Below, piece by piece: positions 35,613 to 64,000 of a DNA stretch of 64,000 bases. Position numbers and translations under genes: made by a program. Numbering within the stretch: position 1 is the first letter of the stretch; each line of letters starts with the position of its first letter. The DNA comes from an uncultured Actinomycetes bacterium (GTDB lineage Bacteria; Actinomycetota; UBA4738; HRBIN12). Under the pieces are notes generated by a model. It made no database searches. It worked only from the letters and a program-made list of their open reading frames with translations, and was not told the DNA's origin. The stretch spans positions 2,793,234-2,857,233 of the forward strand of contig OY969099.1 of NCBI GenBank assembly GCA_963697875.1, read 5' to 3'.

Positions 35613-35643
35613 GGAGCAACGCTATGCCCTGTTCCACGAGGCG

Positions 35644-47435: not shown

Positions 47436-47549
47436 TCCACCTCGATCCGGGTCGATGGGGACACGCTAGCGACGGCCGGACGGCCGCAGATGCGCCGTCG
47501 ACCGTATCTTTCGCCCACACGGCGTACGTAGGCGGTCTGCGTACCCGGG

Positions 47550-49675: not shown

Positions 49676-51423
49676 GACGCCACCCAGACGGTGCTCTCGA
49701 CGCCGTCGTGCACGGCGATCGTGCCGACCCGCTCGAACCCGAGCGCGGCGTAGAAGGCGTTCGCCCCGTCGTTGTCGGCGCCGACGACCGCCTTGCAGCG
49801 ATCGGCCCCGCGACGCGCCAGGCCTGACAGGACCGCCCCCGCGAGGGCGCGGCCGGCCCCGGTCCCCCGGGCCCGCTCGTCGACCGCGATCGCCAGCAGC
49901 TCCGCGTCGGGAAGGTCGGCGCGCCGGCCGGGGTAGCGGGCGGTCTCGCCGGCGCGTGCGCGGACCGACGCATCCCGAAGGCGCGGCGCGGCCGCGAGGG
50001 CCGCCCGGACGCCCCGCCGGAACGCGAACCGACGGTAGAAGGCGCCGAGCGATGGCACGCCGGACGCGAACCCCAGCACCTCACCCCCCCGCTCGGCGAC
50101 GAACACCGTGGCGGCGCGATCGCCGATCAGCCCGGCGTGCAGCTGCGTGAGGAACCGCGCCCCGAGCCAGGGCAGGAACGCCGTGGGCATCGTCGCGATG
50201 TGCAGCCGCGCGATCGCCCGGGCGTCCGATCGCCGCGCCGGCCGTACGACCGTCGCGTCCCGGTTCCCCCGGACGATCCCCCTGGCTCGCAGCAGGCGCT
50301 CGGTGACGCCGACAACCGTGGCGACCACCCGCTCCTGGTCGAACTCGGCCTCGGCCCGGCGCCTCGCGGCCGCGCCCATCCTCCGTCGCAGTGCGCCGTC
50401 CTCCAGGACCCGGACGAGCGCCGAGGCCAGCGCGCCCGCGTCGCGGACCGGCACGAGCAGCCCCTGCACGCCGTCGGTCACGACCTCCCGGCAGCCGCGG
50501 ATGTCGGTGAGCACGAGCGGAAGCCCGCTCGCCGCGGCCTCGATCGCCGAGCGCGGCATCCCCTCGCGCCACGACGGCAGCGCGAACACGTCCATCACGG
50601 CCATCAGCTCGGCCACGTCCTCGCGCCACCCCGTGAACACCACGTCCTTGCTCGCCGCCTCGATCTCGGCGGCCTCGATCGCGTCGGGCTTATCCGGGTC
50701 ACCCTGCCCGACCACGAGGAACCGCGCCGCGGGCACCCGCGCCCGGACCCGACGCGCCGCCTCGAACAGCTCGAGGAAGCCCTTCTCGCGAACCATCCTC
50801 CCGACGGTCCCGACGACCAGCTCGTCCTCGCCGATCCCGAGCTCGGCGCGGAGCTTCCGCGCCGCCTCCGAGCCGGCGCGCTCGGGCGCGAACCGCGCCA
50901 CGTCGATCCCGTTGCCCAGCTGGATCGCCCTGCCGCGGCGGACGACCCGCAGGCGTCGCGCCCACGCGAGGTCCTCTCCCGACTGGTACAGCTCGAGGTC
51001 CGAGCAGCGGGATGCGAGCGCCTCCACCGCCAGGACCGGCCCGCGCTTCCCGAGCCGGTCCTCCGGCGTCGCCCAGAGCCCGTGGACCGTGTTCAGCACG
51101 ACCGGCACGCCGAGCAGGCGGGCGGCCACGCGCCCCATCGCGCCGGGCTTCGGGTTGTGCGTGTGGACGGCGTTGAACCGCTCGCGCCGGAGGATCCGGA
51201 CCAGCTCGCGGAGGGCCCGCACGTCCGCCCGCGGGTTCCACGCCCGCGTCACGGTCGTCCACGCCACGTACCGGATCCCCTCGGCCTCGACGTCGCCGAC
51301 CCACGGGCCCGGCGCGCCGATCGCCGTCACGTCGTGCCCCTTCTCGCGGAGCCCCACGAGCTGCGGCAGCAGCAGGAACCGGTGCGTCAGGTCGACCGTG
51401 GCCACGTGTGCGATCTTCGCCAT
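49663..51423 (-). CDS. bifunctional glycosyltransferase family 4 with a C-terminal GNAT N-acetyltransferase domain
   Basis: The start is MAKIAHVATVD (ATG 51423). The GT4 domain is ...GRMVREKGFLELFEAA...FALPSWREGMPRSAIEAAASGLPLVLTDIRGCREVV.... The reading frame then continues uninterrupted into the GNAT fold ...VFVAERGGEVLGFASGV...LLAIAVDERARGTGAGRALAGAV...GANAFYAALGFERVG. Confidence 0.75.
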   Translation of the reverse strand: MAKIAHVATVDLTHRFLLLPQLVGLREKGHDVTAIGAPGPWVGDVEAEGIRYVAWTTVTRAWNPRADVRALRELVRILRRERFNAVHTHNPKPGAMGRVAARLLGVPVVLNTVHGLWATPEDRLGKRGPVLAVEALASRCSDLELYQSGEDLAWARRLRVVRRGRAIQLGNGIDVARFAPERAGSEAARKLRAELGIGEDELVVGTVGRMVREKGFLELFEAARRVRARVPAARFLVVGQGDPDKPDAIEAAEIEAASKDVVFTGWREDVAELMAVMDVFALPSWREGMPRSAIEAAASGLPLVLTDIRGCREVVTDGVQGLLVPVRDAGALASALVRVLEDGALRRRMGAAARRRAEAEFDQERVVATVVGVTERLLRARGIVRGNRDATVVRPARRSDARAIARLHIATMPTAFLPWLGARFLTQLHAGLIGDRAATVFVAERGGEVLGFASGVPSLGAFYRRFAFRRGVRAALAAAPRLRDASVRARAGETARYPGRRADLPDAELLAIAVDERARGTGAGRALAGAVLSGLARRGADRCKAVVGADNDGANAFYAALGFERVGTIAVHDGVESTVWVASCRS

Positions 51424-52169
51424 CAGCCCTTCCCCCACGGTCCCCGTCCGAGCGCGCGGTAGACCCACGCCTCGGTGTCCAGCTGCCCGGCCGCCTTCCG
51501 CCGGAAGAAGAAGTCCCCGTCGGAGCGCAGCACCGGCACCCGCCCCAGCCGGTACCGGTCGGTTCGGCCGGCGCGGTTCGTCCGCCACGCGTCCCGGGCG
51601 GCCGAGACGAACAGCCGCCGCGCAGCGCGGTCGGCGGCGGCCCCGCCGACGGCCCAGGGGTACGCGAAGTGCCGGCACGCCGCGCCGAGCCGGTCCTCGA
51701 TCAGGTCCCGGGACCGCCGCATCTCCGCGTCCGCCTGTTCCTCGCTCACGTCCGCGAGGTTCGCGTGCGAATGGGTGTGCGACCCGACCTCCACGAGCCC
51801 GCTCGCGACGCACTCCCCCAGCTGCCGCCACGTCAGCCCGTCGCCGCCGACCCCGCCGGTGGCGAGGTACAGCAGCGCCGGTACCCGGTGCCGCTCCAGC
51901 AACGGCAGCGCGCGCTCGGCGAAGTCGGGCGTCCCGTCGTCGAACGTGACCACCACTCCGCCGCGGCCGGCGAGCGCCTCGTCCAGCGTGATCGCGTGTG
52001 GCGCCACGTGCGCGAGCTGCCGGTCGAGCACGTCCTCGGGCAGCTCGATCTCCGAGGTCCCGTCGCCGACCCGGTGGTACAGCAGGATCACGACGTCGTC
52101 CGCCGCGCGCCGACCGGGCAGCCCGAACGGCAGCACCGCCGCCTTCGAGAGGGTCCGGACCGCGCTCAC
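51423..52169 (-). CDS. polysaccharide deacetylase (NodB/CE4 family)
   Basis: GTG 52169 overlaps the upstream stop (GTGA). ...VVILLYHRV..., ...VVVTFDDGTPD... (the DD metal motif) and ...GSHTHSH... are CE4 blocks. Confidence 0.7.
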   Translation of the reverse strand: MSAVRTLSKAAVLPFGLPGRRAADDVVILLYHRVGDGTSEIELPEDVLDRQLAHVAPHAITLDEALAGRGGVVVTFDDGTPDFAERALPLLERHRVPALLYLATGGVGGDGLTWRQLGECVASGLVEVGSHTHSHANLADVSEEQADAEMRRSRDLIEDRLGAACRHFAYPWAVGGAAADRAARRLFVSAARDAWRTNRAGRTDRYRLGRVPVLRSDGDFFFRRKAAGQLDTEAWVYRALGRGPWGKG

Positions 52170-53221
52170 TCCCACCCGTCCTCGCGCCGCGGCACGAGCG
52201 CCGTCCCGAACAGTGCGGCCACGACCAGCACCACGGCCGGCGTGTGCAGCACGTAATCGACGCAGGCGTGCGCCCCGACAACCGCGACCGCCGCCGCGCC
52301 GAGCGCGGTCACCGCGTCGGGGCGAGGCACGGCCAGGAGCCGTACGAAGGCCCACCCGAAGACCGCGACCATCAGGAGCAGGCCCAGGACGCCGAGCTCC
52401 GCGCCGCGCTCGAGGAACTCGTGGTGCGCCTGGAACGCGTCGCGGTCCGAGCGGGCCGTCGGGCTCACCCGGGCGAACGTCCCGAGCCCGTTGCCGCGCG
52501 GCTCGGCCGTCGTCGCGTCCCACGCGTCGTGCCACAGGGCCAGTCGGCGTTCGGTGAGCCCCGCGTCCACCAGGCGTTCGGCGACCCCGGTCGGGCCGGC
52601 CGTGGGGTCGTACGTAGCCGCGAGCCAAACCGTCGCCGAAAGCGAGACCACGAACACGGCGGCCATCGCCGCGATCGCTACGCGCGAGGCCCGCGGACCC
52701 ACGAGCGCGATCGCGAGCGCCACGAACGCCAGCCCGACCACCGCCGCCGCCTCGGCGCTTCGGACCGCGACCGCCGAGGGCGCCAGCGCCACGGCGACCG
52801 TCACCACGATCGCCGGCCACCGCCGGAGCGCGCCGCCCGTCATCAGCCACGCAACCGCGGCCGCCGCCAGGAACGCCCCGCTCGCGTTCCGGTAGCCGAA
52901 CGGTCCGCCGAGCGGCCCGGTCGTCAGGTCGAGCCGCCATCGCCACGCGAACCAGGTCGCGCCCACCGCGACGACGGCCGGCACCAGCGCCCGGTGCGTC
53001 CGCGCGCCGACAACCGCCGAGACGACGACCACCCCGGCGACGGCGCCGAGCAGCGCCACGAACGACCCCGCGTCGGTCCCGGTGCGGAGCCCCACGAGCA
53101 GGGCCACGAGCGCCAGCGCGCCCACCAGCACGAGGCCGGCCACGTCCAGCCCCGGCCGGAGCTCCTCGTGGACCCGCGTCGTGACGACGGCCCGGTCACG
53201 CCAGCGGCTCAGCGCCTGCAT
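52166..53221 (-). CDS. O-antigen ligase/polymerase-like (Wzy_C domain) polytopic membrane protein
   Basis: About ten TM helices are present, with a large loop containing ...RNGLGTFARVSPT...AHHEFLERGAELGVLGLLLMVAVFG, which is Wzy_C-like. Confidence 0.6.
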   Translation of the reverse strand: MQALSRWRDRAVVTTRVHEELRPGLDVAGLVLVGALALVALLVGLRTGTDAGSFVALLGAVAGVVVVSAVVGARTHRALVPAVVAVGATWFAWRWRLDLTTGPLGGPFGYRNASGAFLAAAAVAWLMTGGALRRWPAIVVTVAVALAPSAVAVRSAEAAAVVGLAFVALAIALVGPRASRVAIAAMAAVFVVSLSATVWLAATYDPTAGPTGVAERLVDAGLTERRLALWHDAWDATTAEPRGNGLGTFARVSPTARSDRDAFQAHHEFLERGAELGVLGLLLMVAVFGWAFVRLLAVPRPDAVTALGAAAVAVVGAHACVDYVLHTPAVVLVVAALFGTALVPRREDGWE

Positions 53222-54569
53222 GCTCCACCTCCCGTACCTCGGGGTGCCGCTCCCACCACACGGGCGTGGGAACCGCCAGCAGCACCAGGAAGAACGGCAG
53301 CACCTGCGAGCGCTGCCGCGCGAGGATCCCGAAGTTCGCGATGCTCGAGAACCCGAACACGAACACCGCCACGAACACGATCGCCACGGCCACGTAGGGC
53401 TGCCGGCGGATCGACGTCGCGGCCTCCCAGATCCACCGCCACCGCCAGACCGACCACGCGAGCAGCGCCGTCCCCTCGAGCGCCGCGAGGAACCCCTGGA
53501 CGTTCTTCGCCTCCGGAAGCAGCGGCCGGAAGAGCACCGTCACAGCCGCGAGCGGCGCGCGCGTGGGGCTGTCGAGCACCGACGCCTGGAACGACGAGCC
53601 GCCCTGCTGGGTGCGGAACTCCGTGTTCTGCAGCGTCGCGCTCACGCCGCCCTCGTCGTTCACCCCCGCCTGCGCCAGGAAGTCGTTCGTCATCCGGACG
53701 AGGAAGAGCGTCCCGACCGCGAGCGCCGCGAGCACGGCGACCTTCGCGAGGAGCCCGACCTCGCGGTGCTCGGGCCGCGTCGGCCGCACCACGTACCCGG
53801 CCACCGTCGCGATCGCGACCATCGCCGCGATATGGGGCCGGACGACCGCGAGCGCCGCCACGCCCAGCACCACCGGCAACGCGGCGCCCCTGATCCCGGT
53901 CGTCAACAGCCGCGCGATGCCGAACGCCGCGAGCCCCAGCCCGAAGAGCATCCATGCCTCCTTGCCGACGCTCGACGGCCAGAACAGCAGCGACGGCATG
54001 AAGAAGACGAGCCGCGCGTACGTGCGACGGCGGCCCTCCGGGACCGCGATCGCGAACGCCCGATAGAAGAGGAAGAGGCCCCAGAACGCGATCCACGAGA
54101 AGACGAGGAAGGCCCCGACCTGGGTCGGCCACGTGAACGAGTAGACGACCCCCGTCAGGAGACCGGGGAACCCGGTCCCGGTGACGCTGCCCGTCATCGT
54201 GAAGTCGAGGCGATGGAACCGCGCCGCGAACGACGTGCCTTCCTGCAGGTACCGCGCCGCGTCGGCCACCCCCCCGTAGACGCCGAACGCGACGTAGTAG
54301 CGGGCGAGCGATGCGCCGAGCTTCAGCAGCAGGGCCCAGACCAGGATCGTGAACACGCGCGGCTCGTCCTCGCGTGCCGCCTGGCGCCGGAGCGCCGGCA
54401 GCGACACGAGGATCAGGACCGGCGCCACGAGCACCGCGCCCCACGTGTCGTACGTGGACCGATCCATAAGGAGCAAGAGCCAGGCGCTGAGCCCGGCGAG
54501 GAGCGCGAGCCACAGCAGCCCGAGGGGCTGCGTCCGGATCAGGAGTCTGCGGTCGGCAGTGGTCGCCAC
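53196..54569 (-). CDS. polytopic membrane protein (12 or more TM helices), candidate glycan polymerase or flippase
   Basis: The hydrophobicity pattern shows 12 or more TM helices. No soluble catalytic motif is present. The gene sits inside the glycan cluster and overlaps both neighbours. Confidence 0.5.
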   Translation of the reverse strand: MATTADRRLLIRTQPLGLLWLALLAGLSAWLLLLMDRSTYDTWGAVLVAPVLILVSLPALRRQAAREDEPRVFTILVWALLLKLGASLARYYVAFGVYGGVADAARYLQEGTSFAARFHRLDFTMTGSVTGTGFPGLLTGVVYSFTWPTQVGAFLVFSWIAFWGLFLFYRAFAIAVPEGRRRTYARLVFFMPSLLFWPSSVGKEAWMLFGLGLAAFGIARLLTTGIRGAALPVVLGVAALAVVRPHIAAMVAIATVAGYVVRPTRPEHREVGLLAKVAVLAALAVGTLFLVRMTNDFLAQAGVNDEGGVSATLQNTEFRTQQGGSSFQASVLDSPTRAPLAAVTVLFRPLLPEAKNVQGFLAALEGTALLAWSVWRWRWIWEAATSIRRQPYVAVAIVFVAVFVFGFSSIANFGILARQRSQVLPFFLVLLAVPTPVWWERHPEVREVEHAGAEPLA

Positions 54570-54570
54570 C

Positions 54571-55587
54571 TCAGAACACCTCCAGGTCCCCGAGCGCGAG
54601 CGCCCACGACGACGCGCGCAGCGGATCGACCGGGATCGGGCGGAGCGGGTTTGCCACGAGGGTCAGCCCCTCCGGCGACGGCAGGAACCCGGCCCGGCGC
54701 ACTGCGCGACGAGCCTCGGACCCGGGCGGGAAGCTGCACGTGACGTGGTCGGCCGCCGCCGCCCCGACGGCCGCGCGCAACGCTCCGCGCACCGACCGCA
54801 CGTCGCCCGGCGCCGCGAAGACTTCCGCCACCGTCGTCTCCCAGAGCCGCCCGCGCGGCCGAACGCGGAAGATCGCGATCGCGTCCGGGCGTGACCGGTT
54901 GCCCAGTGCGACCGCCCGGTAGTCCAGGAGCGGTGCCTCCCCGTACCGCCACCGGAGGTACTCGACGGAGCGGTCCGTCACGAGCCGCCCGGCCTCAGCC
55001 GCGGGGAGCAGCGGCGCCACGGCGTCGCCGTCGGCGAGCAGGGAGCCGGCCGGCGGTGCGGACACCGTCGGCGCGGTGCCCGCGTCGGCGTGCAGCTCGT
55101 CACGCGACCGCATCCCTCTCGCGAAGCGGAGCGGCCGGCGGATCCGGACCTCGATCGGCACGTCGGCGATCCGCCGCCATCCCATCTTCAGGTAGCCGGC
55201 GAGGCTCTGGTCGTTCGGCGTGTTGAAGACCAGGTCGGTGTCCGCGCGGAGCTCGTCGACCGCCGAGAGCGTCAACCGCCGAAAGATCCCCTGCCCCTGG
55301 TAATCGGGGTGCGTCGCGGTATCGACGGCCCGCACCGCCGAGACCGGCTTCCCGTCCACGAGGAACCGCCACCGCATGAAGGTCCGGAACCCGACGACGC
55401 GGTCGCCGTGCTCGGCCAGGATCGCGAACGACCGACCGAACGGGTTCGACGCGTGCTTCCACCGGAAGAACGCCGGCGAGCGGCTGCCGGCCGGGCCGCC
55501 GCCGAGCGACGCGTCGAGCAGCCCGAGAACCGCCGCCTCGTCCTCGTCGCGGTAGGGCCGCACGTCCAATGCGATCCGAAGGCTCAT
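54571..55587 (-). CDS. GNAT-family acetyltransferase (FemAB-like double-GNAT possible)
   Basis: ...FAILAEHGDRVVGFRTFMRW..AVDTATHPDYQGQGIFRRLTLSAVDE... is a GNAT core. The protein is about 338 aa, allowing two GNAT-like halves. Confidence 0.6.
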   Translation of the reverse strand: MSLRIALDVRPYRDEDEAAVLGLLDASLGGGPAGSRSPAFFRWKHASNPFGRSFAILAEHGDRVVGFRTFMRWRFLVDGKPVSAVRAVDTATHPDYQGQGIFRRLTLSAVDELRADTDLVFNTPNDQSLAGYLKMGWRRIADVPIEVRIRRPLRFARGMRSRDELHADAGTAPTVSAPPAGSLLADGDAVAPLLPAAEAGRLVTDRSVEYLRWRYGEAPLLDYRAVALGNRSRPDAIAIFRVRPRGRLWETTVAEVFAAPGDVRSVRGALRAAVGAAAADHVTCSFPPGSEARRAVRRAGFLPSPEGLTLVANPLRPIPVDPLRASSWALALGDLEVF

Positions 55588-56690
55588 GCCAGCACCTCTC
55601 CGTACACCTGCTCGATCCGTCGGACGGCGACGCGGATGTCGAACTCGGCGGCACGCGCGCGGCCCGCCTCGCCGAGATGGGCGCGGAGCGCGGGGTCGTC
55701 CAGCAGCCGGACGATCGCGGCCGCGAGCGCCCGATCGTCGGCCGGCGGCACGACCAGTCCCTCACGGTCGTCCCGTACGACCTCGCCGAGCCCGCCGACG
55801 TCGGGCACCACCGCCGGCCGGCCGAGTGCGAGCGCCTCGATCAGCGCGATCGAGAGCCCCTCGTGCTCGGAGGACAACGCGAACACGTCGAACGCCGCGG
55901 CCAGCCGCTGCGCGTCCTGGCGGAACCCCAGGAACAGCACCGTCCCGTCGAGACCCATCCGTGTCGACATGTGCCGCAGCTCGTCCTCGAGCTGCCCAGA
56001 CCCGACGAGGAGGAACCGGACGTCGGGGTACTCGGCGCGGACGATCGTCGCCGCGTGGAGCAGCCGGTCGATGCGCTTGTGCTCCTTCAGGTTCGCGACG
56101 GTCCCGACGATCGGCGCGCCGGCCGGGATCGCGAGCTCCTCGCGGACCCCGTCGGCTTCGCCCTGCCCGCGGACGGCCTCCAGGTCGATCCCGTGGTAGC
56201 GCGTCTCGACCGGCGGCCTCGGCAGGGCCCGCAGCGCACCGGGGAGGACGATCGAGTCCCGGACGTGATCGGAGACGGCGAGCACACGGTCGCTCCGCCA
56301 AAAGGTGAGCGCGTTCGCCCAATACGTGGCCGGGTGGTAGCGCTCCCACACGTTGTGCTCGGTGTAGACGCGTCGCGGCCGGGCACCCCAGCAGGCGAGC
56401 CGCGCCCCGACCGCCGGCACCGGTGACTGCGCGTGGATCAGGTCGATCCGCTGCTCGCGGACGAGCGACCGCAGACGCGGCACCCACCCGATCCCACGCC
56501 CGCCCTGCAGGCAATGCACCGGTACGCCCTGGTCCGCGATCTCCTTCACGAAGGCGTCCTTCCACGGCAGGAGGTAGGCGACCTCGTAGTCGAATCGGGT
56601 CCGGTCGAGGTGCGGGATTGAGCTGGCGAGGATCTGCTCCGCTCCTCCCCGGCCGAGGCCCTTGATGAGGAGGAGGACTCGATGCCTCAT
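55584..56690 (-). CDS. glycosyltransferase family 4
   Basis: The start is MRHRVLLLIKGLGRGGAEQ (ATG 56690, overlapping the upstream stop as ATGA). ...FALSSEHEGLSIALIEALALGRPAVVPDVGGLGEVV... is the EX7E region. Confidence 0.8.
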   Translation of the reverse strand: MRHRVLLLIKGLGRGGAEQILASSIPHLDRTRFDYEVAYLLPWKDAFVKEIADQGVPVHCLQGGRGIGWVPRLRSLVREQRIDLIHAQSPVPAVGARLACWGARPRRVYTEHNVWERYHPATYWANALTFWRSDRVLAVSDHVRDSIVLPGALRALPRPPVETRYHGIDLEAVRGQGEADGVREELAIPAGAPIVGTVANLKEHKRIDRLLHAATIVRAEYPDVRFLLVGSGQLEDELRHMSTRMGLDGTVLFLGFRQDAQRLAAAFDVFALSSEHEGLSIALIEALALGRPAVVPDVGGLGEVVRDDREGLVVPPADDRALAAAIVRLLDDPALRAHLGEAGRARAAEFDIRVAVRRIEQVYGEVLA

Positions 56691-57793
56691 CGTCCCGCGG
56701 CGACCTCCTCGTAGACCGCCAGGTACCGGGCGGCGATCGCCCTGATGTCGAACGCGCTCGCGTGCGCCGGCGCCTCGGCACGGATCCGCGCCACGAGGTC
56801 CCGGTCGTCGAGCAGTCGGCCGGCGGCATCGGTGAGCGCGTCGACGTCGCCGTGCGTCACGAGCAGGCCGCTTCGACACGGGCAGACGACCTCCCCGATC
56901 CCGGCCACGTCGTAGCCGGCAAGGGGGAGTCCGAGCATGGCCGCTTCGATAGCTACGGCCGGCATCCCCTCCATCCCGTCCGGCCGGCTCGCGAACAGCA
57001 GGACGTCGCTCGCCGCGATCAGGTCGCCGACGTCCCGGCGTGATCCGAGGATCCGCGTCACCTGCGGATCGGCCGAGATGAGCACCTCGCCACGCTTCGG
57101 CCCGTCGCCGGCCATCAGATGGACCAGGCCGGGTCGCGTCGCCGCCAACCGCCGCGCGACCTCCACGTGAACCAGCGGATCCTTCTCCCAGCTCAGCGCG
57201 CCGATCGAGAGCACGACCGGGACCTCCGGATCGATCCCGAGCGCCGAACGGACCTCCTCCCGGGAGCGCCGCGGCGCGATCCGAGCGCGATCCACGCCGT
57301 TCGGAATCGTGACGACCTTCTCCGGCTCCAGCCCGAACTCCTCGATCGTCTCCTCGCGGAGCCGGTCGGCGACGGCGACGACCCGTGCGGCGCGTCGCAT
57401 CACCCTCCTGTAGAGGCCGCGGAGAACTCGGCTGCCGAGCTGCGGAGGTGATCCGCCTATCCGCCGATAAACGATCCGCGTTCCTCGTGAAGCTATCGAG
57501 GAGTACTTCAGGGCTTCACCCCCGTGCGCCTGGATCACGTCTGGCTCGAGCTCGGCCACGAGCGACCGAAGCCGAACCCCGGGGGTCTGAAGTGCCGCAC
57601 GCGACACCTTCGCCGGCATCACCTGGTGGGTGGGCGCTTCGAACGAGAGCTCCTGTGGACCCGATCGGAGAATAGCGACCGCCTGCTGTCCTCCGCCCCG
57701 CGCGATCTCGCCGACCAGGTCGGCCGCGAATACCTCGGCGCCGCGACGTCGTCCCGACGCTACGACGTGGAGCACGCGCCCCTGATCATTCAT
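56687..57793 (-). CDS. glycosyltransferase family 4
   Basis: MNDQGRVLHVVASGRRRGAEV... and ...LFASRPDGMEGMPAVAIEAAMLGLPLAGYDVAGIGEVV... are GT4 patterns. Confidence 0.8.
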   Translation of the reverse strand: MNDQGRVLHVVASGRRRGAEVFAADLVGEIARGGGQQAVAILRSGPQELSFEAPTHQVMPAKVSRAALQTPGVRLRSLVAELEPDVIQAHGGEALKYSSIASRGTRIVYRRIGGSPPQLGSRVLRGLYRRVMRRAARVVAVADRLREETIEEFGLEPEKVVTIPNGVDRARIAPRRSREEVRSALGIDPEVPVVLSIGALSWEKDPLVHVEVARRLAATRPGLVHLMAGDGPKRGEVLISADPQVTRILGSRRDVGDLIAASDVLLFASRPDGMEGMPAVAIEAAMLGLPLAGYDVAGIGEVVCPCRSGLLVTHGDVDALTDAAGRLLDDRDLVARIRAEAPAHASAFDIRAIAARYLAVYEEVAAGR

Positions 57794-58937
57794 ATTGCGC
57801 GTGCTCTAGGTGTTCGCTATGCCGCGCGATAGCTTCATCGACCAACGCCTCGAATCGGCGCGTGACGGTCCCGGGGTCCAGCTCGTCGCGTCGGCTGTGC
57901 TCCATCGCGCGTGCCGAAAGTTCTTCATACCTCGACTCGTCATCCCAGACCTCTGCAAGGGCGCGGATCCACCCGTCGAGCGGCGCGCCCGGGTCGACCA
58001 GGACCCCTCCGCCGCCGACCGATTCCGGCAGCCCCCCCAAAGCGCTCGTGATGCTCGGGATCCCGTTGACTTGCGCCTCCGAGACGACCCGACACCAGGC
58101 TTCCTCATCCATGCTCGGGACCAAGACCAACCGGCAGTCCCCGTACAGCTCCCCGGGATCGCTCGTCGCCGGGCGAACCTCCATGTTGCCGAGAGCGCGT
58201 GCCCGCTCGCGCACGTCACGGAGCGCGCCTCGCCTCATCCGCCAGCTCAGCCGGATCACGAACGGGATGTCGCGCCGCGCCGACGCGATACCGAAGGCGA
58301 TCTCGATCCCCTTCCGCGGGGTCGGGTTCACGAACAACACCTTCTCGCGTCGAGTTTGAACCTCGTACGTGGACCTGGGGAAGAGAGATGGGAGGAACGT
58401 CGCCTCACGCCCAGCGAGATGGACACATCGCGCTGTGAAGGAAGAGTTCGCGATCACGACATCGGCGTGGATCGTCGATCCGGCCGCTTCGGCAGATCTA
58501 GCGTCCCTCACGTAAAGGATGCTGGGGCGATCGGTCGTCGCGTTGAGGCAGGCTCGCGCGAATCGAGGATCTCCACAGGTCACGACCACGACGTCGGCCG
58601 CAGTCTCGCTGGCAACGGCCCCGACCGCCGCAACCGGGTCGTGCACACGCCTCGTCGGGTATCCGAGCGACAGGTCGAGGCGAGGAGCAAGACGGCGGCC
58701 GAGGCCGTCAGCCGCCCAGGCCAGCGAACCAGCAAGCGATCTCCTTGGGAGGCGTGTCAAGACGGACACCTCGTCCCCTGCTGCTTGGAGACAAGCCGCG
58801 AGATGGTGGGTACTGACCTCCGACCCGCCCACGTAGGGCAGATGGTTCTTGCCGACGAACAGCACGCGACGCGCAGGTAGCTCAGCGCGCCGACGCGTCT
58901 CGACGTCTGAGATCGCGGAACGACGGGCCGTCATCAT
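57786..58937 (-). CDS. glycosyltransferase family 4
   Basis: VLFVGKNHLPYVGGSEV... and ...LVPSMDEEAWCRVVSEAQVNGIPSITSALGGLPESV... are GT4 patterns. The local GC is lower than in the core. Confidence 0.75.
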   Translation of the reverse strand: MMTARRSAISDVETRRRAELPARRVLFVGKNHLPYVGGSEVSTHHLAACLQAAGDEVSVLTRLPRRSLAGSLAWAADGLGRRLAPRLDLSLGYPTRRVHDPVAAVGAVASETAADVVVVTCGDPRFARACLNATTDRPSILYVRDARSAEAAGSTIHADVVIANSSFTARCVHLAGREATFLPSLFPRSTYEVQTRREKVLFVNPTPRKGIEIAFGIASARRDIPFVIRLSWRMRRGALRDVRERARALGNMEVRPATSDPGELYGDCRLVLVPSMDEEAWCRVVSEAQVNGIPSITSALGGLPESVGGGGVLVDPGAPLDGWIRALAEVWDDESRYEELSARAMEHSRRDELDPGTVTRRFEALVDEAIARHSEHLEHAQYE

Positions 58938-60067
58938 CGCCCCACCTCAGAGGTCGGCCTCTGCGAGAGCGCGTCGACCGCATCCTGCCAGATAACCGAC
59001 CACCTCAGATCTGCCACCGCATCCCGATTGGCGATACCCGCGTCAACGGCACGCGACCTGTCAGCCAGGTATCCGGTGACTGCTTGGGCGAACGGCTCCG
59101 GGTCGTCGCACACGCGGAGGCCCGTCGATCCGGCGATGCCGGCGGCCGCCCACGATGTGGCGACGACAGGACGTGAGGACGCCATCCCCTCGACCACCTT
59201 GATCTTCGTGCCCCCGCCGCCGAACAAAGGAGCCACGACGACCGTTGCTGCCTCGTACTCGGGCACGAGAGAACGAACGAACCCGGAGTACGACACAGAG
59301 TTGTCGCCTCGTCCGTTCCACCCTGGACCGACGACGCGGAGCCGAGCGCCGGGAACGCGCTCCCGAACCGTCGGCCAGACCATGTTCACGAACCAGTCCA
59401 GACCGGACCGGTTCGCCGCGTAGTTCCCGGGACCGACGAAGAGACAGACGGATGCGCCGTTGGACGGCGGGCTGACCGACCACAACTCGTCGGTGGCACC
59501 GTTCGGGATCGTCCGCGCGGTGAGGTTCGGTAGGGACCTGGTGAGCCGCAAGCGCTCTTCCTCCGATACGAACCAGGCCTCGTCACATCGACGGAGGACG
59601 CGCTGCTGCCAACGCGCGTACTTCATGGCCGACAGCCGTGTCGAAACCCGAGCGATCCACGGGGTGCTCAAAGCTGCAAGCGACCCCAACCGTGCGGCGT
59701 CGTCGTCGTGGAGGACCACGATCCGTCGCGAAGTGTCGAGCCTCAGCGCTGCCGGCCAGACCGCGGTGGTCTCCGCCTGGACGACGTCGTACGTTCCCCG
59801 AAGGTCTCCGCGGGCTCGATCGACGTTCCATGCGAGCGGGGGGTCCGCGGATAGGTGGCAGCGCACCGGATGCGGTCGAACCTCGATGTCGACATAGCCA
59901 TCTAGCAGCGATGCCTCTTCCTGGGTCAGGGGGTGCTCGTGCCTCCGTCGGAAGTGGTACACGTCGACCTCGAAACCGGCACCCTTGTAGTAGCGGAGCA
60001 TGGCGGTCACGCGCGTTGCGAACCCCGTCCCCCGAAGCGACCGGGCGACGACAATCGCGACCCTCAC
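58934..60067 (-). CDS. glycosyltransferase family 4
   Basis: ...VVAPLFGGGGTKIKVVEGMASSRPVVATSWAAAGI... is a GT4 C-terminal domain. Confidence 0.7.
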   Translation of the reverse strand: MRVAIVVARSLRGTGFATRVTAMLRYYKGAGFEVDVYHFRRRHEHPLTQEEASLLDGYVDIEVRPHPVRCHLSADPPLAWNVDRARGDLRGTYDVVQAETTAVWPAALRLDTSRRIVVLHDDDAARLGSLAALSTPWIARVSTRLSAMKYARWQQRVLRRCDEAWFVSEEERLRLTRSLPNLTARTIPNGATDELWSVSPPSNGASVCLFVGPGNYAANRSGLDWFVNMVWPTVRERVPGARLRVVGPGWNGRGDNSVSYSGFVRSLVPEYEAATVVVAPLFGGGGTKIKVVEGMASSRPVVATSWAAAGIAGSTGLRVCDDPEPFAQAVTGYLADRSRAVDAGIANRDAVADLRWSVIWQDAVDALSQRPTSEVGR

Positions 60068-61047
60068 GTTGTGACCAACGCTCTCGTCAGGTGCTTCTTC
60101 GCCCGGCTAGCCCGTACGTGGATACCCCGCATGGCCACCCTCGTTGCTCCCCGTACACGGGTAGTTGCAGGAAGCGTCGGAAGACCGCGCTCGTACCCAA
60201 GCTCCGTCAGCAGCGACCCGGCGACCGACTCGAACACCTCCAGGTCGCTTCTGGTCATCTGCTCGCGCCAGTCCCTGGTCGAACGTTGCGGAGGCAACAA
60301 CGCGTTCATGTGGAAGCGCTCGAGGTCACTGGGAACCTCCAGCCGGTCGCGCGCGGTTCGGTGGTACTCAAGCATCGACGGAACGAACTCCAGCCCGAGG
60401 AAGGCGCATACATCGCGCAGCTTCCCCGGCGGGTCATCGACCAGATCCTCGTAACGAAGCTCGAGGTAGCGACTGGACCCGAGTGCCGCTCCCGCACGTA
60501 ATCCTGCGCTCACCCACTCGCGCCACCTCCACGATGCTTCCCAGATCCCTCCCTTGAAGGAGCGCATCTCCAGGTAGGAGAGCGCAACGTTGCGCCCATC
60601 CCTGATCAGGTGGACGAATCGCGCCCTCGGGAAGAGCACGGCCAAGTGACGCATCGACAACACATAGATCGGCGTCTTGTCTCCCCACCGTGGCTTGCCG
60701 TGAAGCGTCGCGTACGCTCTGAACGGCGCTGCGACCACGTCCGCGAACCCGACGTCGGGGCGCGACGGGGCTGCCTCCCGAATTGCCTCAGCCGGCACGC
60801 CCCAGGTCGCGAGGTTCGGGTCCGAAACGACGTCTTCCAGAAGCCGGTCCGGATGGAAGAACCCCTCCGACCAGTACCGGCGGCGCCCATCCCAGAGACT
60901 GCGGATGAAGTTGGACTCCCCAGGGATGGCGAGCTCGGGATGCGAGTCGAGCATCAGGCGAAGGAGGGTCGTGCCAGATCTCCCGCACCCGACCACGAAT
61001 ACTGGATCGTTCTCGACCGGGGGCCGCCCTTCCGTCAACACGCCCAC
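60064..61047 (-). CDS. sulfotransferase-family protein (PAPS-dependent; Stf0-like carbohydrate sulfotransferase)
   Basis: VFVVGCGRSGTTLL is the 5'-PSB P-loop motif. ...HLIRDGRNVALS... is 3'-PB-like (RDxR). Confidence 0.7.
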   Translation of the reverse strand: MGVLTEGRPPVENDPVFVVGCGRSGTTLLRLMLDSHPELAIPGESNFIRSLWDGRRRYWSEGFFHPDRLLEDVVSDPNLATWGVPAEAIREAAPSRPDVGFADVVAAPFRAYATLHGKPRWGDKTPIYVLSMRHLAVLFPRARFVHLIRDGRNVALSYLEMRSFKGGIWEASWRWREWVSAGLRAGAALGSSRYLELRYEDLVDDPPGKLRDVCAFLGLEFVPSMLEYHRTARDRLEVPSDLERFHMNALLPPQRSTRDWREQMTRSDLEVFESVAGSLLTELGYERGLPTLPATTRVRGATRVAMRGIHVRASRAKKHLTRALVTT

Positions 61048-62168
61048 CCCACATCGCTCGGTGCCGACGCCTCGAGCAGTCGCTCGTAGAACCTAAGCAG
61101 CTGCGGCATGACAACTCCGATGTCGAACGCGCGCATCGCCTCTCGACCTGCTGTGCCCAGTGAGCGACGGAGGTCAACGTCATCGACGAGCGCACGAAGA
61201 TGCACCGCCGCGACATCGGGTCGATGGACCGGGAAAGTGAGTGCCCCCGGCACTCGCCCAGTTAGTTCTCGCAACCCAGGAATATCGGCAGACACGACCG
61301 GCAGTGCTAGAGCCATGCCCTCCATGGCGACGCGACACCAACTCTCCTGAAGCGACGGGATGAGCAGGACGTCCATCTCTCGATAGGCCGTTTCGACGTC
61401 GTCGACGACACCGCGCCACTCGATTCGATCACGGAGGCCGGCCGCGACAAGTCGATCAATGCATGAACGGACGTATGCAGAGGACGAGTCTGGTTTCACG
61501 CCGAAGATGACCCATTCGACATTGTCGTCTGCCATCTGCCGCGCCACATCGACCACAATGTGGAGTCCCTTTCGCCTCGAACCTGAACCGACAAAGCCAA
61601 TCCGCATCGGTAGATCATTCCGGGGGAGGACTGAATGCGACGGGACTTCGATGGGGTTCGGCAGGATCTCTTCAGTCATGGGACCAAGGCCGGCATCGAC
61701 AAGAACCGCTTTCGCTCGCGTTGAGACGGGGTGGAGTTCCAAGCGAACGCCGAGTTGCATCCAGAGCTTCGCTAGAACTCGAGCGCGATAGCCAATCTCA
61801 GAGCCGTGGAAGTGAACGAGGACAGGAATCGACCTCCTCAACGCGATTGGTGCGATGAGGTTCAGTGCGGACAGTCCGTTCGCATGGATCACGTCGGGGA
61901 CGCAGCCACGAGCAATGTAGCCTGACAGCGCACGACTCCCTTTGAGCCAAGATCTCACTCGCGACCTCTGCAGAGGCAGTTGAAGCGACCCGACTTGAGG
62001 CAGCTCTTCAACCGATGTAAGGATGACGCCGCCTGCTGCAGCGACGTCAAGTTCGCACACATTCGCTACCTGGGAAGCAAAAGCCGCCATCGTTCGGTCG
62101 GGCCCGCGTAATCCTCCAAGCGGGTGGACCATCAGAACACGCACGGTCAGTCGGAACCCGCAACCCAC
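61035..62168 (-). CDS. glycosyltransferase family 4
   Basis: ...VLVHFHGSEIG... and ...LLIPSLQESWCRVAMEGMALALPVVSADIPGLRELT... are GT4 patterns. GC is markedly lower here. Confidence 0.75.
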   Translation of the reverse strand: MGCGFRLTVRVLMVHPLGGLRGPDRTMAAFASQVANVCELDVAAAGGVILTSVEELPQVGSLQLPLQRSRVRSWLKGSRALSGYIARGCVPDVIHANGLSALNLIAPIALRRSIPVLVHFHGSEIGYRARVLAKLWMQLGVRLELHPVSTRAKAVLVDAGLGPMTEEILPNPIEVPSHSVLPRNDLPMRIGFVGSGSRRKGLHIVVDVARQMADDNVEWVIFGVKPDSSSAYVRSCIDRLVAAGLRDRIEWRGVVDDVETAYREMDVLLIPSLQESWCRVAMEGMALALPVVSADIPGLRELTGRVPGALTFPVHRPDVAAVHLRALVDDVDLRRSLGTAGREAMRAFDIGVVMPQLLRFYERLLEASAPSDVGWAC

Positions 62169-62422
62169 GATGTTGGTGTCTTCTCGTTTGAACGTAGGTC
62201 CGTCCAGGCTCCTTCGAACACGACGGGTCCCAGTTCGGCTCCAATCGCATCCAGGTGGGCAGCCTCGAAAGCGACGGAGCGATCCAATTTCCCGGGGTCG
62301 ACGATCGCGCCCTCGACCGACAATGCGCAGATCACGGGGAAGTACGCACCCGGCCGCAGAGAGAGATTCTCAATCCGCCAACGCACCATTCGAGCATGCA
62401 TTCGGCTTTCGATCGGCTTCAT
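62147..62422 (-). CDS. small hypothetical ORF (91 aa) coupled to the upstream hydrolase gene
   Basis: The start overlaps the hydrolase stop. No motif is recognised. Confidence 0.25.
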   Translation of the reverse strand: MKPIESRMHARMVRWRIENLSLRPGAYFPVICALSVEGAIVDPGKLDRSVAFEAAHLDAIGAELGPVVFEGAWTDLRSNEKTPTSWVAGSD

Positions 62423-63363
62423 GCGCCATCCCAGTTCAGTCGACCGACCCAGTCGCGTACCAGTTCCAAGACCGTGTCCTGGGACTCCATCGTTCCGAAA
62501 CCGTGGATAGATCCACCGACGCGCCTGAGCTCCACTCTGGCTGAAGGAAGCGAGAGAGAGGACTCGAACAGAGGCTGAGCGCGCAGGTAGTCATCAAACA
62601 GATCGTCCTGCTCCCCATACACAATCAGCGTCGGCACGCCGCGCTCCGCGAGCCACTTGAGGGACCCCAGGAACGAATTGCTGACAGGGCCTACACCGTG
62701 AGCTACGGACTCCTGTTTCGAGTGTTGGAGCCGGTCCATCTTCGAGGCAAAGATCTTCCTGTAGGTGGTTCGACGATTGGGTGACAGGAATCCTCGGATT
62801 ACGCGAGGTTTCGCCGCTCGCCACAGAAGCTGGTTCACCGGTAGCTCCGCCATCCTGGTCGAAACGCGCTGGCCCATCTCGAAGTCGCGAACGGGCGGGC
62901 ACAGAAGGACAAGTCCAGCCAGGTGTTCCACCGCTGGAGCTGCTGACAGAGCTGTCCGCGCTCCGAAGCAGCTGCCGATGAGGAGCACCTCGTCCAGGCC
63001 AAGCGTCTCAAGGTGATGTATGGCCCCGAGCAGATCTTTGGTGAACGGCTCTGCGAGGTCGAATCGGTCAAGTTCACCGGTACTCTCCCCGACGCCGTGG
63101 TAATCGAACCGGAAGGCCGCCAGGCCTCTTTCCGCCGATCCCCTGCTAAGCCGAACCCATATGTCGTTGACACTCGTCGATAGCGGAGTGCCGCCGCTTG
63201 ACAAGCTGACGACCACGCCTCGGGGAACGGGTCGATCACCTTTCCCTTCGGAGAGAAGACCAAAGAGCCTCTCCTGACCGGCTTCGAAGTACATCGGGGT
63301 TTCCCGAACGGAGAGCATCCCTATTCCTTGTGAGAGAGGCGTCGGAGGCCGCCCAAGATCCAA
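62419..63363 (-). CDS. alpha/beta-hydrolase fold protein
   Basis: FDYHGVGESTG is an HG-x-G-x-S oxyanion region. LLIGSCFGARTALSAA is the nucleophile elbow. Confidence 0.65.
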   Translation of the reverse strand: MDLGRPPTPLSQGIGMLSVRETPMYFEAGQERLFGLLSEGKGDRPVPRGVVVSLSSGGTPLSTSVNDIWVRLSRGSAERGLAAFRFDYHGVGESTGELDRFDLAEPFTKDLLGAIHHLETLGLDEVLLIGSCFGARTALSAAPAVEHLAGLVLLCPPVRDFEMGQRVSTRMAELPVNQLLWRAAKPRVIRGFLSPNRRTTYRKIFASKMDRLQHSKQESVAHGVGPVSNSFLGSLKWLAERGVPTLIVYGEQDDLFDDYLRAQPLFESSLSLPSARVELRRVGGSIHGFGTMESQDTVLELVRDWVGRLNWDGA

Positions 63364-64000
63364 TCAGCCGTCGCCTTCACGCATCCCGCCGTCAAACGAG
63401 TGTGGGCGTCTCGCTCCTCCTGTATGCCGCGCGACCACCACGAAACCTCTTCACCCAAGACGTCGAACTCGACCTGGAACCCCTTCTCGCCCCAAACCTC
63501 GGCGGCGGAGGCATAGTCCGGTCGGGCCTTGCCGCGGCCGAACTGCACGATCTTCAATGGCCGCGGTGTGTCGCCGAGGACCTCCGGCAGGGAGTGATCG
63601 AGACTCTGGAGGAGGACCCGCCGAACGGGGTATCCATGCACGTCGACGAGACCGCGCCTGTCTAGCTCGGTAGCCGCGTCGGACCCACTCGACCGGTCAC
63701 GCGTGTCGCCAGCGAGACTTGCGAACCGCAGAGCTCGCTTCGCCTCCAGCAAGTAGCTCTCTGACGTCATGACGGGCGACCACAGCACCAAGGGGGCTCG
63801 AGGATGCTCGGAGGCGACGGCGGCAGCCACGTAACCGCCAAGACGGCTTCCGACGAAGCACAGCTGCTTCGCGTTGAACCGCTCCCGCATCAGTTGGATG
63901 ACTGTGCAAGCGTCGTGGGTCATCGTGGCAAACGTCATCTGCTGGGGATCCCCCCAGCTATGTCCTATACCCCGGTAATGGAGGCGTGCGGTCGCGACAC
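63321..64000 (-). CDS. alpha/beta-hydrolase fold protein, paralog of the previous; partial, as the N-terminus lies beyond the window
   Basis: The frame is open to the window edge: ...LHYRGIGHSWGDPQQMTFATM...LCFVGSRLGGYVAAAVA... shows the same block order as the neighbouring hydrolase. Track ORF 63321..63938 begins at an internal Met. Confidence 0.6.
   Translation of the reverse strand, partial: VATARLHYRGIGHSWGDPQQMTFATMTHDACTVIQLMRERFNAKQLCFVGSRLGGYVAAAVASEHPRAPLVLWSPVMTSESYLLEAKRALRFASLAGDTRDRSSGSDAATELDRRGLVDVHGYPVRRVLLQSLDHSLPEVLGDTPRPLKIVQFGRGKARPDYASAAEVWGEKGFQVEFDVLGEEVSWWSRGIQEERDAHTRLTAGCVKATADWILGGLRRLSHKE

Follow-up and report, generated by a model that had tools for sequence, protein, structure and literature searches.

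The window analyzed here, the whole 64-kb stretch of DNA (64,000 nucleotides), carries near its end a minus-strand open reading frame of 327 residues (ST; 60064..61047, start codon GTG at 61047) that is, judging by its sequence, a real and intact PAPS-type sulfotransferase gene with predicted enzyme activity. Pfam assigns it to Sulfotransfer_3 (PF13469; 134.3 bits, E=9.6e-39), a family match far above chance given the cut-off of 27, with residues 15-221 aligned to positions 1-214 of the 216-position profile, and the only Pfam families matching the protein were Sulfotransfer_3 and Sulfotransfer_1. The public gene call (P0001, 296 aa) starts at Met32, so that the PAPS loop is cut off; since this loop is carried by all of the aligned homologs (34/34), the longer ORF of 327 residues is supported. 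GTG 61041 and TTG 61038 are alternative in-frame starts. The protein has 0 transmembrane segments and 0 signal peptide, and it ends in a basic helix (residues 294-326) with a net charge of +9.

The residues expected to bind PAPS are intact. The predicted 5'-phosphosulfate-binding (5'-PSB) loop, V19-G-C-G-R23-S-G-T-T27 (VGCGRSGTT, residues 19-27; 60967..60993, minus strand), comes after a strand at residues 16-20 in the AF2 model, and homolog alignment showed R23, S24, G25 and T27 to be invariant in 34 homologs. The predicted 3'-phosphate-binding (3'-PB) motif, R149-D-G-R-N-V-A-L-S157 (RDGRN, residues 149-153; 60577..60603, minus strand), was recognized in the same alignment, with R149, D150, G151, V154 and S157 invariant, and its RDGR aligns with the RDGR motif of tyrosylprotein sulfotransferases (TPSTs). 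Glu44 (60916..60918, minus strand) and Lys124 (60676..60678, minus strand), the latter in an invariant D-K-T-P motif, are both invariant in the 34 homologs and are, by homology only, the candidate catalytic base and transition-state lysine: Glu44 aligns with the second Glu of the human TPST2 CGEET motif, which we take to be the catalytic Glu99, and Lys124 with the Lys of the TPST N-K-D-P motif. Furthermore, the AF2 model (pLDDT 93.2, pTM 0.90) found only sulfotransferase-fold proteins among its best 50 Foldseek matches in the PDB (50/50), and no kinase was present among these 50. Because this confident model (pLDDT 93) matches sulfotransferases alone, as do the family assignments and the PDB sequence matches, a P-loop kinase was ruled out. 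The earlier note had described a PAPS-type sulfotransferase with VGCGRSGTT and RDGRN, and Pfam, motifs and fold all agree with it; the possibility it had raised, that the PAPS-binding residues would be missing and the protein prove to be a P-loop kinase, was not borne out by the alignment. TPSTs and the acyl-ACP sulfotransferases OLS/CurM are the nearest solved structures (20-25% identity, TM 0.56-0.69), and no carbohydrate sulfotransferase was among the nearest ones by PDB sequence or fold.

Gene layout supports the view that ST lies within a glycan-assembly operon, to which it is translationally coupled. Its start codon sits 13 bp within the 3' end of the upstream gene (61035..62168, minus strand), which also contains both alternative starts, and its stop codon TGA (60064-60066) overlaps the GTG start at 60067 of the downstream gene (58934..60067, minus strand) in the sequence GTGA. 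Both flanking genes encode GT4 glycosyltransferases according to Pfam, and the overlaps at both ends of ST uphold the operon coupling that had been proposed earlier. These genes belong to a run of overlapping minus-strand genes of about 15 kb that, in addition to ST, contains six GT4s, two GNATs, a deacetylase, a Wzy_C protein, a WecA-like primer and a DegT aminotransferase, and each junction examined from 62168 to 47550 was either an overlap or a 1-bp gap. No promoter or terminator scored above shuffled sequences in 59800..64000, and no terminator was found between ST and its neighbors.

Downstream of ST, all on the minus strand, the GT4 at 58934..60067 (best NCBIfam match stp1, an XrtA-system glycosyltransferase, under the cut-off) is followed by two more GT4s (57786..58937 and 56687..57793), by a further one whose start was taken as ATG 56690, overlapping the upstream stop (55584..56690), and by a GNAT acetyltransferase of 338 aa assigned by Pfam (54571..55587). 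Next come a polytopic membrane protein of 457 aa with about 10 hydrophobic segments (53196..54569), which matches no Pfam or NCBIfam family, has homologs in the relative loci L085 and L034 and might serve as a flippase or polymerase partner, and a Wzy_C membrane protein of the O-antigen ligase/polymerase type (52166..53221; 41.6 bits, cut-off 31.7). The run is completed by a NodB-type polysaccharide deacetylase (51423..52169), a 586-aa GT4 with a C-terminal GNAT domain fused to it (49663..51423), a Glycos_transf_4 (WecA/MraY-family) polyprenyl-phosphate sugar-1-phosphate transferase that is likely the priming enzyme (48713..49666, GTG 49666 overlapping the upstream stop) and a DegT/DnrJ/EryC1 sugar aminotransferase (47550..48716), whose ATG 48716 overlaps the upstream stop and is preceded by GAGAGGAG. 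An NAD-dependent sugar epimerase/dehydratase (44142..45086, minus strand), syntenic with DegT in L085 and L034, probably supplies the amino-sugar precursor. On the other side of the run lie two minus-strand alpha/beta-fold proteins, one with Cys at the nucleophile elbow (GSCFG; 62419..63363) and one with Arg at the nucleophile position (GSRLG; 63321..63998), with 'hydrolase 1, exosortase A system-associated' and 'hydrolase 2, exosortase A system-associated' as their respective best NCBIfam matches, both under the cut-off. The frame of the second stays open upstream nearly to the window edge, and the glycan cluster may run on beyond 64000. Pfam recognized no Wzx flippase, chain-length regulator/co-polymerase or export component in the cluster, and scans of the 64-kb window, mainly with Pfam, found no APS kinase or ATP sulfurylase (cysC, cysD, cysN).

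The closest relatives of ST (50-60% identity) retain an ST-GT4-GT4-GT4 module. In L082 and L084, ST is followed collinearly by orthologs of the three GT4s next to it here, and in L083 the same genes are rearranged; across these three loci identities span 47-58% (48-51% for 58934..60067, whose counterpart adjoins ST, 49-58% for 57786..58937 and 47-51% for 56687..57793), and L083 also has a relative of the GT4 at 55584..56690 with 62-65% identity. In L085 a Bac_transf priming phosphoglycosyl transferase carries the ST domain as an N-terminal fusion, and its gene lies within a block (membrane protein, Wzy_C, deacetylase and GT4, then GNAT, epimerase and DegT) that corresponds to 44-54.5 kb of the window. 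Sugar-nucleotide or polysaccharide genes were present in all contexts of the 50-60% homologs (9/9), and a glycosyltransferase or priming transferase in 8/9.

More widely, the ST family is large, with some 11,000 cluster representatives matching at E<=1e-10, roughly 1,200 of which are close. GTDB species representatives contain at least 569 of its loci, and it is very common in uncultured soil Actinomycetota. From these loci, 80 with 35-50% identity to ST were kept for context analysis, and a relative of GT4, the priming transferase, Wzy_C, the deacetylase or DegT was present in only 25 of them. Their immediate neighbors, counted approximately because genes in the relative loci were called with a crude GC-by-codon-position filter, were PQQ-type beta-propellers (17/140), FlgD_ig proteins (9/140), GT2 (7/140), GT4 (7/140) and sulfatases (6/140). 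Since the neighbors of distant homologs are mixed, membership in the ST family does not by itself imply a glycan substrate. Tandem sets of 2-8 ST paralogs were also found in relatives, with arrays of up to eight in some of the Actinomycetota lineages in the set. With E. coli CysC and CysD sequences as queries (alignments of 42-51% identity, E down to 1e-91), APS kinase (cysC) homologs were detected within 10 kb of ST homologs in 19/88 loci and CysD in 6/88, a finding in favor of PAPS as the family's donor.

The reading that we favor, and regard as reasonably probable, is that ST would be a soluble cytoplasmic PAPS-dependent Sulfotransfer_3 enzyme, co-translated with glycosyltransferases, that sulfates a lipid-linked glycan intermediate; sulfation of a cell-surface glycan by the organism is probable. 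This reading combines the family, intact motifs, fold, gene overlaps, synteny and fusion observed in ST and its relatives with an acceptor that we infer from gene context only, as we do the order of steps and the supply of PAPS. The dehydratase, the DegT aminotransferase and a GNAT would make an amino-sugar precursor, and the WecA-like enzyme would load the N-acetylated amino sugar onto polyprenyl phosphate. The resulting lipid-linked oligosaccharide could then be lengthened by the six GT4 enzymes at the cytoplasmic membrane face, where a sugar hydroxyl of the lipid-linked intermediate would receive, through ST, the sulfuryl group of PAPS, with the 5'-phosphosulfate held by R23-S-G-T-T27, the 3'-phosphate by R149 and S157, Glu44 deprotonating the acceptor and Lys124 stabilizing the transition state. 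Export and polymerization or ligation of the unit might proceed via the Wzy_C protein and the 10-segment membrane protein, with further trimming by the deacetylase and perhaps acylation by the alpha/beta-fold pair. More tentatively, with an expectation somewhat below even, ST, the ST-GT4x3 module and the alpha/beta-fold pair, one member with a Cys nucleophile and the other nucleophile-less, may define an uncharacterized pathway, widespread in Actinomycetota, for a sulfated and perhaps acylated envelope polysaccharide or exopolysaccharide assembled on polyprenyl.

Other acceptors have to be weighed against a lipid-linked glycan. It seems unlikely to us that ST acts, instead of on a polymer repeat unit, on a lipid, a small glycolipid or an intermediate bound to an acyl carrier, like the OLS/CurM domains or mycobacterial Stf0, with the acyl part coming from the alpha/beta-fold pair and, in relatives, from an adenylating enzyme together with a carrier protein, even though the top PDB sequence match is the olefin synthase ST domain (4gox, E=9e-17), the CurM ST matches too, and the pair adjoins ST in the window, in L082, the P0014 contig, L086/87, L088/89, L090 and L034, with genes for an adenylation enzyme and a carrier protein ahead of it in two of these, L082 and the P0014 contig. 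KS, AT and KR domains are absent nearby and ST is a stand-alone protein rather than part of an ACP-ST-TE module; it overlaps GT4 genes but is separated from the hydrolase pair by a 250-bp gap, the tandem paralogs of relatives better match multi-site sugar sulfation, and what ST is fused to in L085 is a priming glycosyl-phosphate transferase. Still less probable, in our judgement, is a protein or peptide tyrosine sulfotransferase (TPST/RaxST-like) placed in a glycan cluster by chance. TPSTs are the leading fold matches (8w5z, 3ap1 and 5wri; E down to 8e-14) and align with ST at the catalytic Glu, Lys and Arg positions, one relative of 50% identity has a RiPP-like context of PqqD, NTP_transf_5 and an ABC transporter, and secreted-type beta-propeller proteins often adjoin more distant homologs. 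However, TPST identity to ST is only 20-24%, and both the conserved ST-GT4x3 module and the way ST is translationally coupled to GT4s indicate a sugar pathway. The window neighbors of ST are GT4s, GNATs and membrane proteins, and no precursor peptide, transporter or RaxA/B-type secretion genes were found flanking it in the window, which speaks against the TPST/RaxST class.

A different question is whether ST has a partner in the sulfatase encoded some 25 kb from it at 34182..35612 (minus strand), since the earlier note had seen in the two together a sign that the organism both makes and remodels or scavenges sulfated glycans. The sulfatase was confirmed as such: the ORF exists, contains SVCCPSRASLLTGR and matches PF00884 (114 bits) and SGSH_C, and the C-x-P-x-R ... 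LTGR signature (CxPSR..LTGR) is present as CCPSRASLLTGR, so that by sequence it is a genuine S1-family Cys-type sulfatase. A single N-terminal hydrophobic segment (residues 18-36), placed after an RR pair, resembles a signal peptide. The solved structures most closely related to this protein are those of carbohydrate sulfatases, for example the GlcNAc-6-sulfatase 5g2v, and sulfatase-family genes fill 6 of the 140 neighbor slots of ST homologs and also flank L086, which would suit such a pairing. Yet the link itself did not stand, and we consider a make-and-remodel model, with both enzymes acting on the same sulfated glycan, very improbable. The sulfatase gene comes at the end of what seems to be an operon of its own (Zn-ADH, PTPS, GT4, sulfatase; 34182..38103) that lies 8.5 kb past the last plausible gene of the glycan cluster, with opposite-strand riboflavin, protease and aminotransferase genes between them. 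Furthermore, the sulfatases near ST homologs elsewhere share only 31-33% identity with this one, which led us to reject orthology and argues that there is no conserved ST-sulfatase partnership, and no match to a formylglycine-generating enzyme (FGE-sulfatase) or SPASM radical-SAM protein was found among the scanned ORFs of the window.

Taken purely as a sequence finding, ST is a family member of the expected kind, and its public annotation is a standard one. The locus is nevertheless a clean candidate, with one intact sulfotransferase in a glycan operon and, in relatives, a retained module and one fusion to a priming transferase. Confirmation of the product would make sulfated envelope glycans a likely common feature of uncultured soil Actinomycetota, of relevance to sulfur cycling in soils, to the binding of metals and to interactions with phages or hosts, and if the reading as a widespread pathway is true, the synthesis of sulfated polysaccharides would extend far beyond cyanobacteria into abundant uncultured soil lineages. 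Recent papers have treated bacterial sulfated polysaccharides as in essence a cyanobacterial trait, with a sulfotransferase-bearing EPS cluster of Actinoplanes as a first hint for actinomycetes (PMC8205485, PMC13390465). The earlier view that sulfated glycoconjugates are rare in bacteria, with few known cases, is too narrow, as the ST family is so abundant and sulfated LPS (LpsS), K-antigen (KpsS) and the cyanobacterial EPS synechan are also known (PMC12445080, PMC11625862, PMC8205485).

Among characterized proteins, the closest solved folds to ST are those of human TPST1/2 and tick TPST (TM 0.58-0.69), which have in common with it the GxxRSGTT loop, the Glu base, the Lys and the RDGR..S 3'-phosphate motif. 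TPSTs are Golgi type-II membrane proteins, whereas ST is predicted to be cytoplasmic and soluble, lacks a peptide substrate context and has an extra basic C-terminal helix. The OLS/CurM ST domains (4gox, 4gbm), which give the best sequence match among solved structures, have the same PAPS motifs and resemble ST in the carrier-protein and alpha/beta-hydrolase genes found near it in relatives; they belong to ACP-ST-TE polyketide synthase modules, in contrast to the stand-alone ST with its glycosyltransferase neighbors, and no PKS domains (KS, AT, KR) occur in the window. The cluster also recalls the EPS loci of the PEP-CTERM/exosortase A (XrtA) system, since several proteins have XrtA-locus families as their best NCBIfam matches (hydrolase 1, hydrolase 2, the stp1 and stp2 glycosyltransferases and, in L082, the acyl ligase). 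Membership in these loci was rejected because every score is far under its curated cut-off (68, 45, 98 and 159 bits for hydrolase 1, hydrolase 2, stp1 and stp2, against 168, 203, 317 and 409). Additionally, no exosortase or PEP-CTERM protein was found in the window, the cluster comes from a Gram-positive-type lineage, and to our knowledge XrtA loci are not defined by a sulfotransferase.

PAPS-using sulfation of LPS, trehalose and capsular polysaccharide is known in bacteria from LpsS and the Stf0 family and from KpsS (PMC12445080, PMC11625862). LpsS is annotated as Stf0 family, whereas ST belongs to Sulfotransfer_3/Sulfotransfer_1, and the mycobacterial enzymes Stf1 and Stf9 match its fold less well (TM about 0.4). 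The predicted activity has a parallel in the rhizobial Nod factor enzymes NodH and NoeE, which use PAPS to sulfate a sugar hydroxyl of a lipid-bearing oligosaccharide; NodH, a GlcNAc-6-O sulfotransferase, is assigned to PF13469 like ST and has a PSB loop of the R-x-G type (PMC11625862). NoeE (NF052394) is the sole NCBIfam model that matches ST, but equivalog identity was rejected (46.4 bits over residues 197-289 only, far under the cut-off of 500), and in contrast to the rhizobial systems ST stands in a Wzy_C/WecA-type polymer operon without nod genes, in an actinobacterial-type genome. A comparable layout is that of synechan (xss, Synechocystis 6803) and of Actinoplanes wps-1, in which sulfotransferase genes lie amid many glycosyltransferases and a Wzy-type polymerase, as ST does here amid GT4s with the Wzy_C protein at 52166..53221. 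Those clusters have two sulfotransferases instead of one, which in Actinoplanes are of other families (Gal/GlcNAc and heparan-sulfate types), and the present one is known from genes alone, with Wzx, PCP and OPX not recognized in it. In the synechan model the lipid-linked repeat unit is sulfated on the cytoplasmic side (PMC8205485), and the wps-1 cluster suggests the same possibility for actinomycetes (PMC13390465).

The ORF at 60064..61047(-), which starts with GTG and is 327 aa long, is by its sequence an intact PAPS-type sulfotransferase (ST), whose activity is predicted. The motifs on which the earlier note had based this assignment, VGCGRSGTT (residues 19-27) and RDGRN (residues 149-153), were both found, and the protein matched Pfam Sulfotransfer_3 over nearly the full profile (134.3 bits, E=9.6e-39), with Sulfotransfer_1 as second match (42 bits). 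The sole NCBIfam match was NoeE, the Nod-factor fucose sulfotransferase, at 46 bits against a cut-off of 500. Sequence matches in the PDB were the olefin-synthase (OLS) ST domain 4gox (E=9e-17), tick and human tyrosylprotein sulfotransferases (TPSTs; 2e-15 to 4e-12), the CurM ST (7e-10) and one other sulfotransferase. In a 34-sequence alignment R23, S24, G25, T27, E44, K124, T125, R149, D150, G151 and S157 were invariant; these positions map to the 5'-phosphosulfate loop and the 3'-phosphate motif, the Glu aligned with the TPST catalytic base and the Lys belongs to the DKTP/NKDP motif. The AlphaFold model built from this alignment was confident (pLDDT 93.2, pTM 0.90), and Foldseek against the PDB ranked TPSTs at the top (TM 0.58-0.69), followed by the OLS and CurM STs and, lower down, mycobacterial Stf9 and Stf1 and cytosolic SULTs, with no kinase among the top 50 matches. 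Since the Pfam, PDB and Foldseek matches were all sulfotransferases, a P-loop kinase, the identity that the note had named as fatal to its claim, is excluded. The protein has no transmembrane-like hydrophobic segment or N-terminal signal-like sequence, and its C-terminus (residues 294-326, net charge +9) forms a long, basic helix. As called in the public record (P0001), it is 296 aa long and starts at Met32, thereby losing the PAPS loop; because this loop is present in all homologs, we take the longer ORF to be correct, with a start at or near GTG 61047 (region concerned, 60954..61047).

When essentially every plausible ORF of the window was scanned against Pfam and NCBIfam, ST fell within a continuous minus-strand array from 63998 down to 47550. 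Transcribed first is an alpha/beta-fold protein (63321..63998), then a second one (62419..63363) and, after a 250-bp gap, a family 4 glycosyltransferase (GT4; 61035..62168, stop TGA 61035-61037), ST, further GT4s (58934..60067, 57786..58937, 56687..57793 and 55584..56690), a GNAT (54571..55587), a 457-aa membrane protein (53196..54569), Wzy_C (52166..53221), a NodB-type deacetylase (51423..52169), a GT4-GNAT fusion (49663..51423), a WecA/MraY-family primer (48713..49666) and a DegT aminotransferase (47550..48716), beyond which lies a sugar dehydratase/epimerase (44142..45086). ST is translationally coupled to GT4s on both sides, in agreement with the operon coupling described in the earlier note: its GTG 61047 sits 13 bp within the upstream GT4, as do the other in-frame starts (GTG 61041, TTG 61038) within the same gene, and its stop TGA 60064-60066 overlaps, as GTGA, with GTG 60067, where the downstream GT4 starts. 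Each junction examined from 62168 to 47550 was an overlap or a 1-bp gap, and no terminator-like site was found between ST and its neighbours. The window has 70% G+C, but the array is uneven, with 0.76-0.78 at 48-53 kb and a drop to 0.61 at 61-63 kb; this drop, together with the resemblance of its halves to different relatives (44-54.5 kb to locus L085, 55-62 kb to L082, L083 and L084), suggests a mosaic origin of the array (48000..63000).

Several other features of the array were recorded. The 457-aa membrane protein, which has about 10 hydrophobic segments and no Pfam or NCBIfam match, could be a flippase or polymerase component that has escaped recognition; L085 and L034 conserve it beside Wzy_C or GT4 genes. 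Just downstream of DegT, two ORFs gave no Pfam match: 46950..47465(-), a small protein that has a Tat-like signal MSRRDLLRRSAIVGGALLWAAP, is rich in Cys in its C-terminal part and has a partial homolog adjoining DegT in L085, and 46001..46981(-), of 326 aa with an HGKTTTT P-loop. The alpha/beta-fold pair recurs beside ST homologs in L082, L086, L088, L090 and L034, and is preceded in L082 and the P0014 contig by a DltA-like adenylating enzyme and a carrier protein. In one member the nucleophile elbow (G-S/T-C-F-G) invariably holds Cys; in the other that position is always Arg or Lys, which leaves it without a nucleophile; the best NCBIfam matches of the pair, below cut-off, were 'hydrolase 1' and 'hydrolase 2, exosortase A system-associated'.

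The gene context of ST homologs varies with their distance from the query. L082 and L084, with ST homologs 50-60% identical, are collinear with the window in a gene like the upstream GT4, ST and three GT4 orthologs, whereas L083 has the same set rearranged; the three downstream GT4s are 47-58% identical to the window genes in these loci. In L085 the ST domain is fused N-terminally to a Bac_transf priming phosphoglycosyl transferase, in a block (membrane protein, Wzy_C, deacetylase, GT4, then GNAT, epimerase and DegT) whose counterpart at window 44-54.5 kb is 40-63% identical. The ST-GT4 module is kept in orthologs, one of them fused to a priming enzyme. In addition, the P0014 contig, L088/89, L090 and L091 contribute GT4, GT2, Bac_transf, ABC-type polysaccharide exporter, UDP-glucose dehydrogenase and carbamoyltransferase genes. 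L086/87 have UDP-glucose dehydrogenase and an ABC exporter, yet also PqqD and NTP_transf_5 (at L086 12550..15983 and in L087 these, with the ABC transporter, lie beside a 50%-identical ST pair), with two flanking sulfatase-family genes. Altogether, all nine close contexts (50-60% identity) held sugar-polymer genes and eight of the nine a GT or primer. Among 80 distant GTDB loci (35-50% identity) only 25 held any relative of the window GT4, primer, Wzy_C, deacetylase or DegT, and the immediate neighbours (n=140) were mixed: PQQ_2 beta-propellers (17), FlgD_ig (9), GT2 (7), GT4 (7), luciferase-like (6), sulfatase (6), PIG-L (5) and Wzy_C (4). The acceptor is therefore not readable from family membership, and its assignment rests on local and near-ortholog synteny.

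On this basis, ST probably transfers sulfate to a sugar hydroxyl of a polyprenyl-diphosphate-linked oligosaccharide, and this acceptor, jointly with sulfation on the cytoplasmic face ahead of export and Wzy_C-dependent polymerisation or ligation, is the arrangement we favour as reasonably likely. Working at the membrane surface would fit both the basic C-terminal helix and the ortholog that is fused to a monotopic priming transferase. The resemblance of ST to OLS/CurM, and the recurring alpha/beta-fold pair, accompanied in relatives by the adenylating enzyme and carrier protein, prompt the alternative of a lipid or acyl-carrier-linked acceptor, which we consider unlikely. More improbable still is a peptide or protein acceptor, with which the TPST fold likeness and one RiPP-like context among relatives are consistent; that context, in L086/L087, hints that some members of the family may act on peptides.

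The earlier note had also joined ST to a Cys-type sulfatase in a scheme of making and remodelling or scavenging sulfated glycans, and only the identity of the sulfatase held. The ORF 34182..35612(-) carries SVCCPSRASLLTGR, matches PF00884 (114 bits) and SGSH_C, has at its N-terminus an RR pair ahead of a hydrophobic segment, and has carbohydrate sulfatases as closest solved relatives, Bacteroides GlcNAc-6-sulfatase 5g2v first; judged from these features, it is a genuine S1 sulfatase. The partnership fails: the sulfatase is the last gene of its own apparent minus-strand operon, after a Zn-dependent dehydrogenase (37102..38103), a 6-pyruvoyl-tetrahydropterin synthase-like gene (36734..37100) and a GT4 (35644..36747), plus-strand RibA/RibD, trypsin-like and aminotransferase genes and an LtrA fragment lie between it and the glycan array, and it shares only 31-33% identity with the sulfatases that adjoin ST homologs in other loci. 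Neither the window context nor the ST-homolog loci gave evidence that the sulfatase takes the ST cluster's product as substrate. This operon (34182..38103) diverges from a GTP cyclohydrolase II/RibD_C fusion (37447..39510(+)), an odd gene combination.

The ST gene is of an already-known type, its relatives being labelled 'sulfotransferase' in public records. Searched in full with HMMER, a set of 1.84 billion cluster representatives gave 32,278 at E<=1e-3, 10,967 at E<=1e-10 and 1,182 at E<=1e-30, and a word-indexed protein search at least 4,469 matches, the closest non-self one 63% identical. The HMMER matches include single proteins in which two to four ST domains are fused in tandem, with lengths of up to 1298 aa. 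GTDB species representatives held at least 569 loci, nearly all in uncultured Actinomycetota (Acidimicrobiia, Gaiellales, Solirubrobacterales, Thermoleophilia), with a few proteobacterial, cyanobacterial and Rhodothermaceae ones. Several Solirubrobacterales, Conexibacteraceae and related loci have six to eight paralogs per 20 kb; the observation of tandem Sulfotransfer_3 arrays and multi-domain proteins covers the MAG loci L021, L025, L046, L058 and L079 and proteins P0130-P0135. APS kinase, ATP sulfurylase, PAPS reductase and FGE were not found within the window; of the 88 loci fetched, 19 had an APS kinase (cysC) homolog no more than 10 kb from an ST homolog (for example L041, L042, L056, L059 and L039, where 9489..9947 directly adjoins ST), and six had a CysD homolog (49-50% identical to the E. 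coli protein) near one. A widespread actinobacterial sulfated-polysaccharide pathway behind the ST cluster is a possibility that we raise tentatively. A sulfated glycan in Actinomycetota would still be experimentally unusual, and the cluster offers a well-defined test case.

Compared with known systems, several cluster proteins have hydrolase 1, hydrolase 2, stp1 and stp2 of PEP-CTERM/exosortase A EPS loci as best NCBIfam matches, but all fall below cut-off and the window has no exosortase, so the likeness is one of resemblance, not membership. By structure TPSTs and the OLS/CurM ST domains are closest to ST; by family, NodH, a member of PF13469 (PMC11625862), is the nearest of the characterised carbohydrate enzymes. 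The closest functional analogues of the cluster are Actinoplanes wps-1, for which a sulfated EPS is proposed but unverified (PMC13390465), and the cyanobacterial xss (synechan) cluster, in which STs also lie among GTs and Wzy (PMC8205485).
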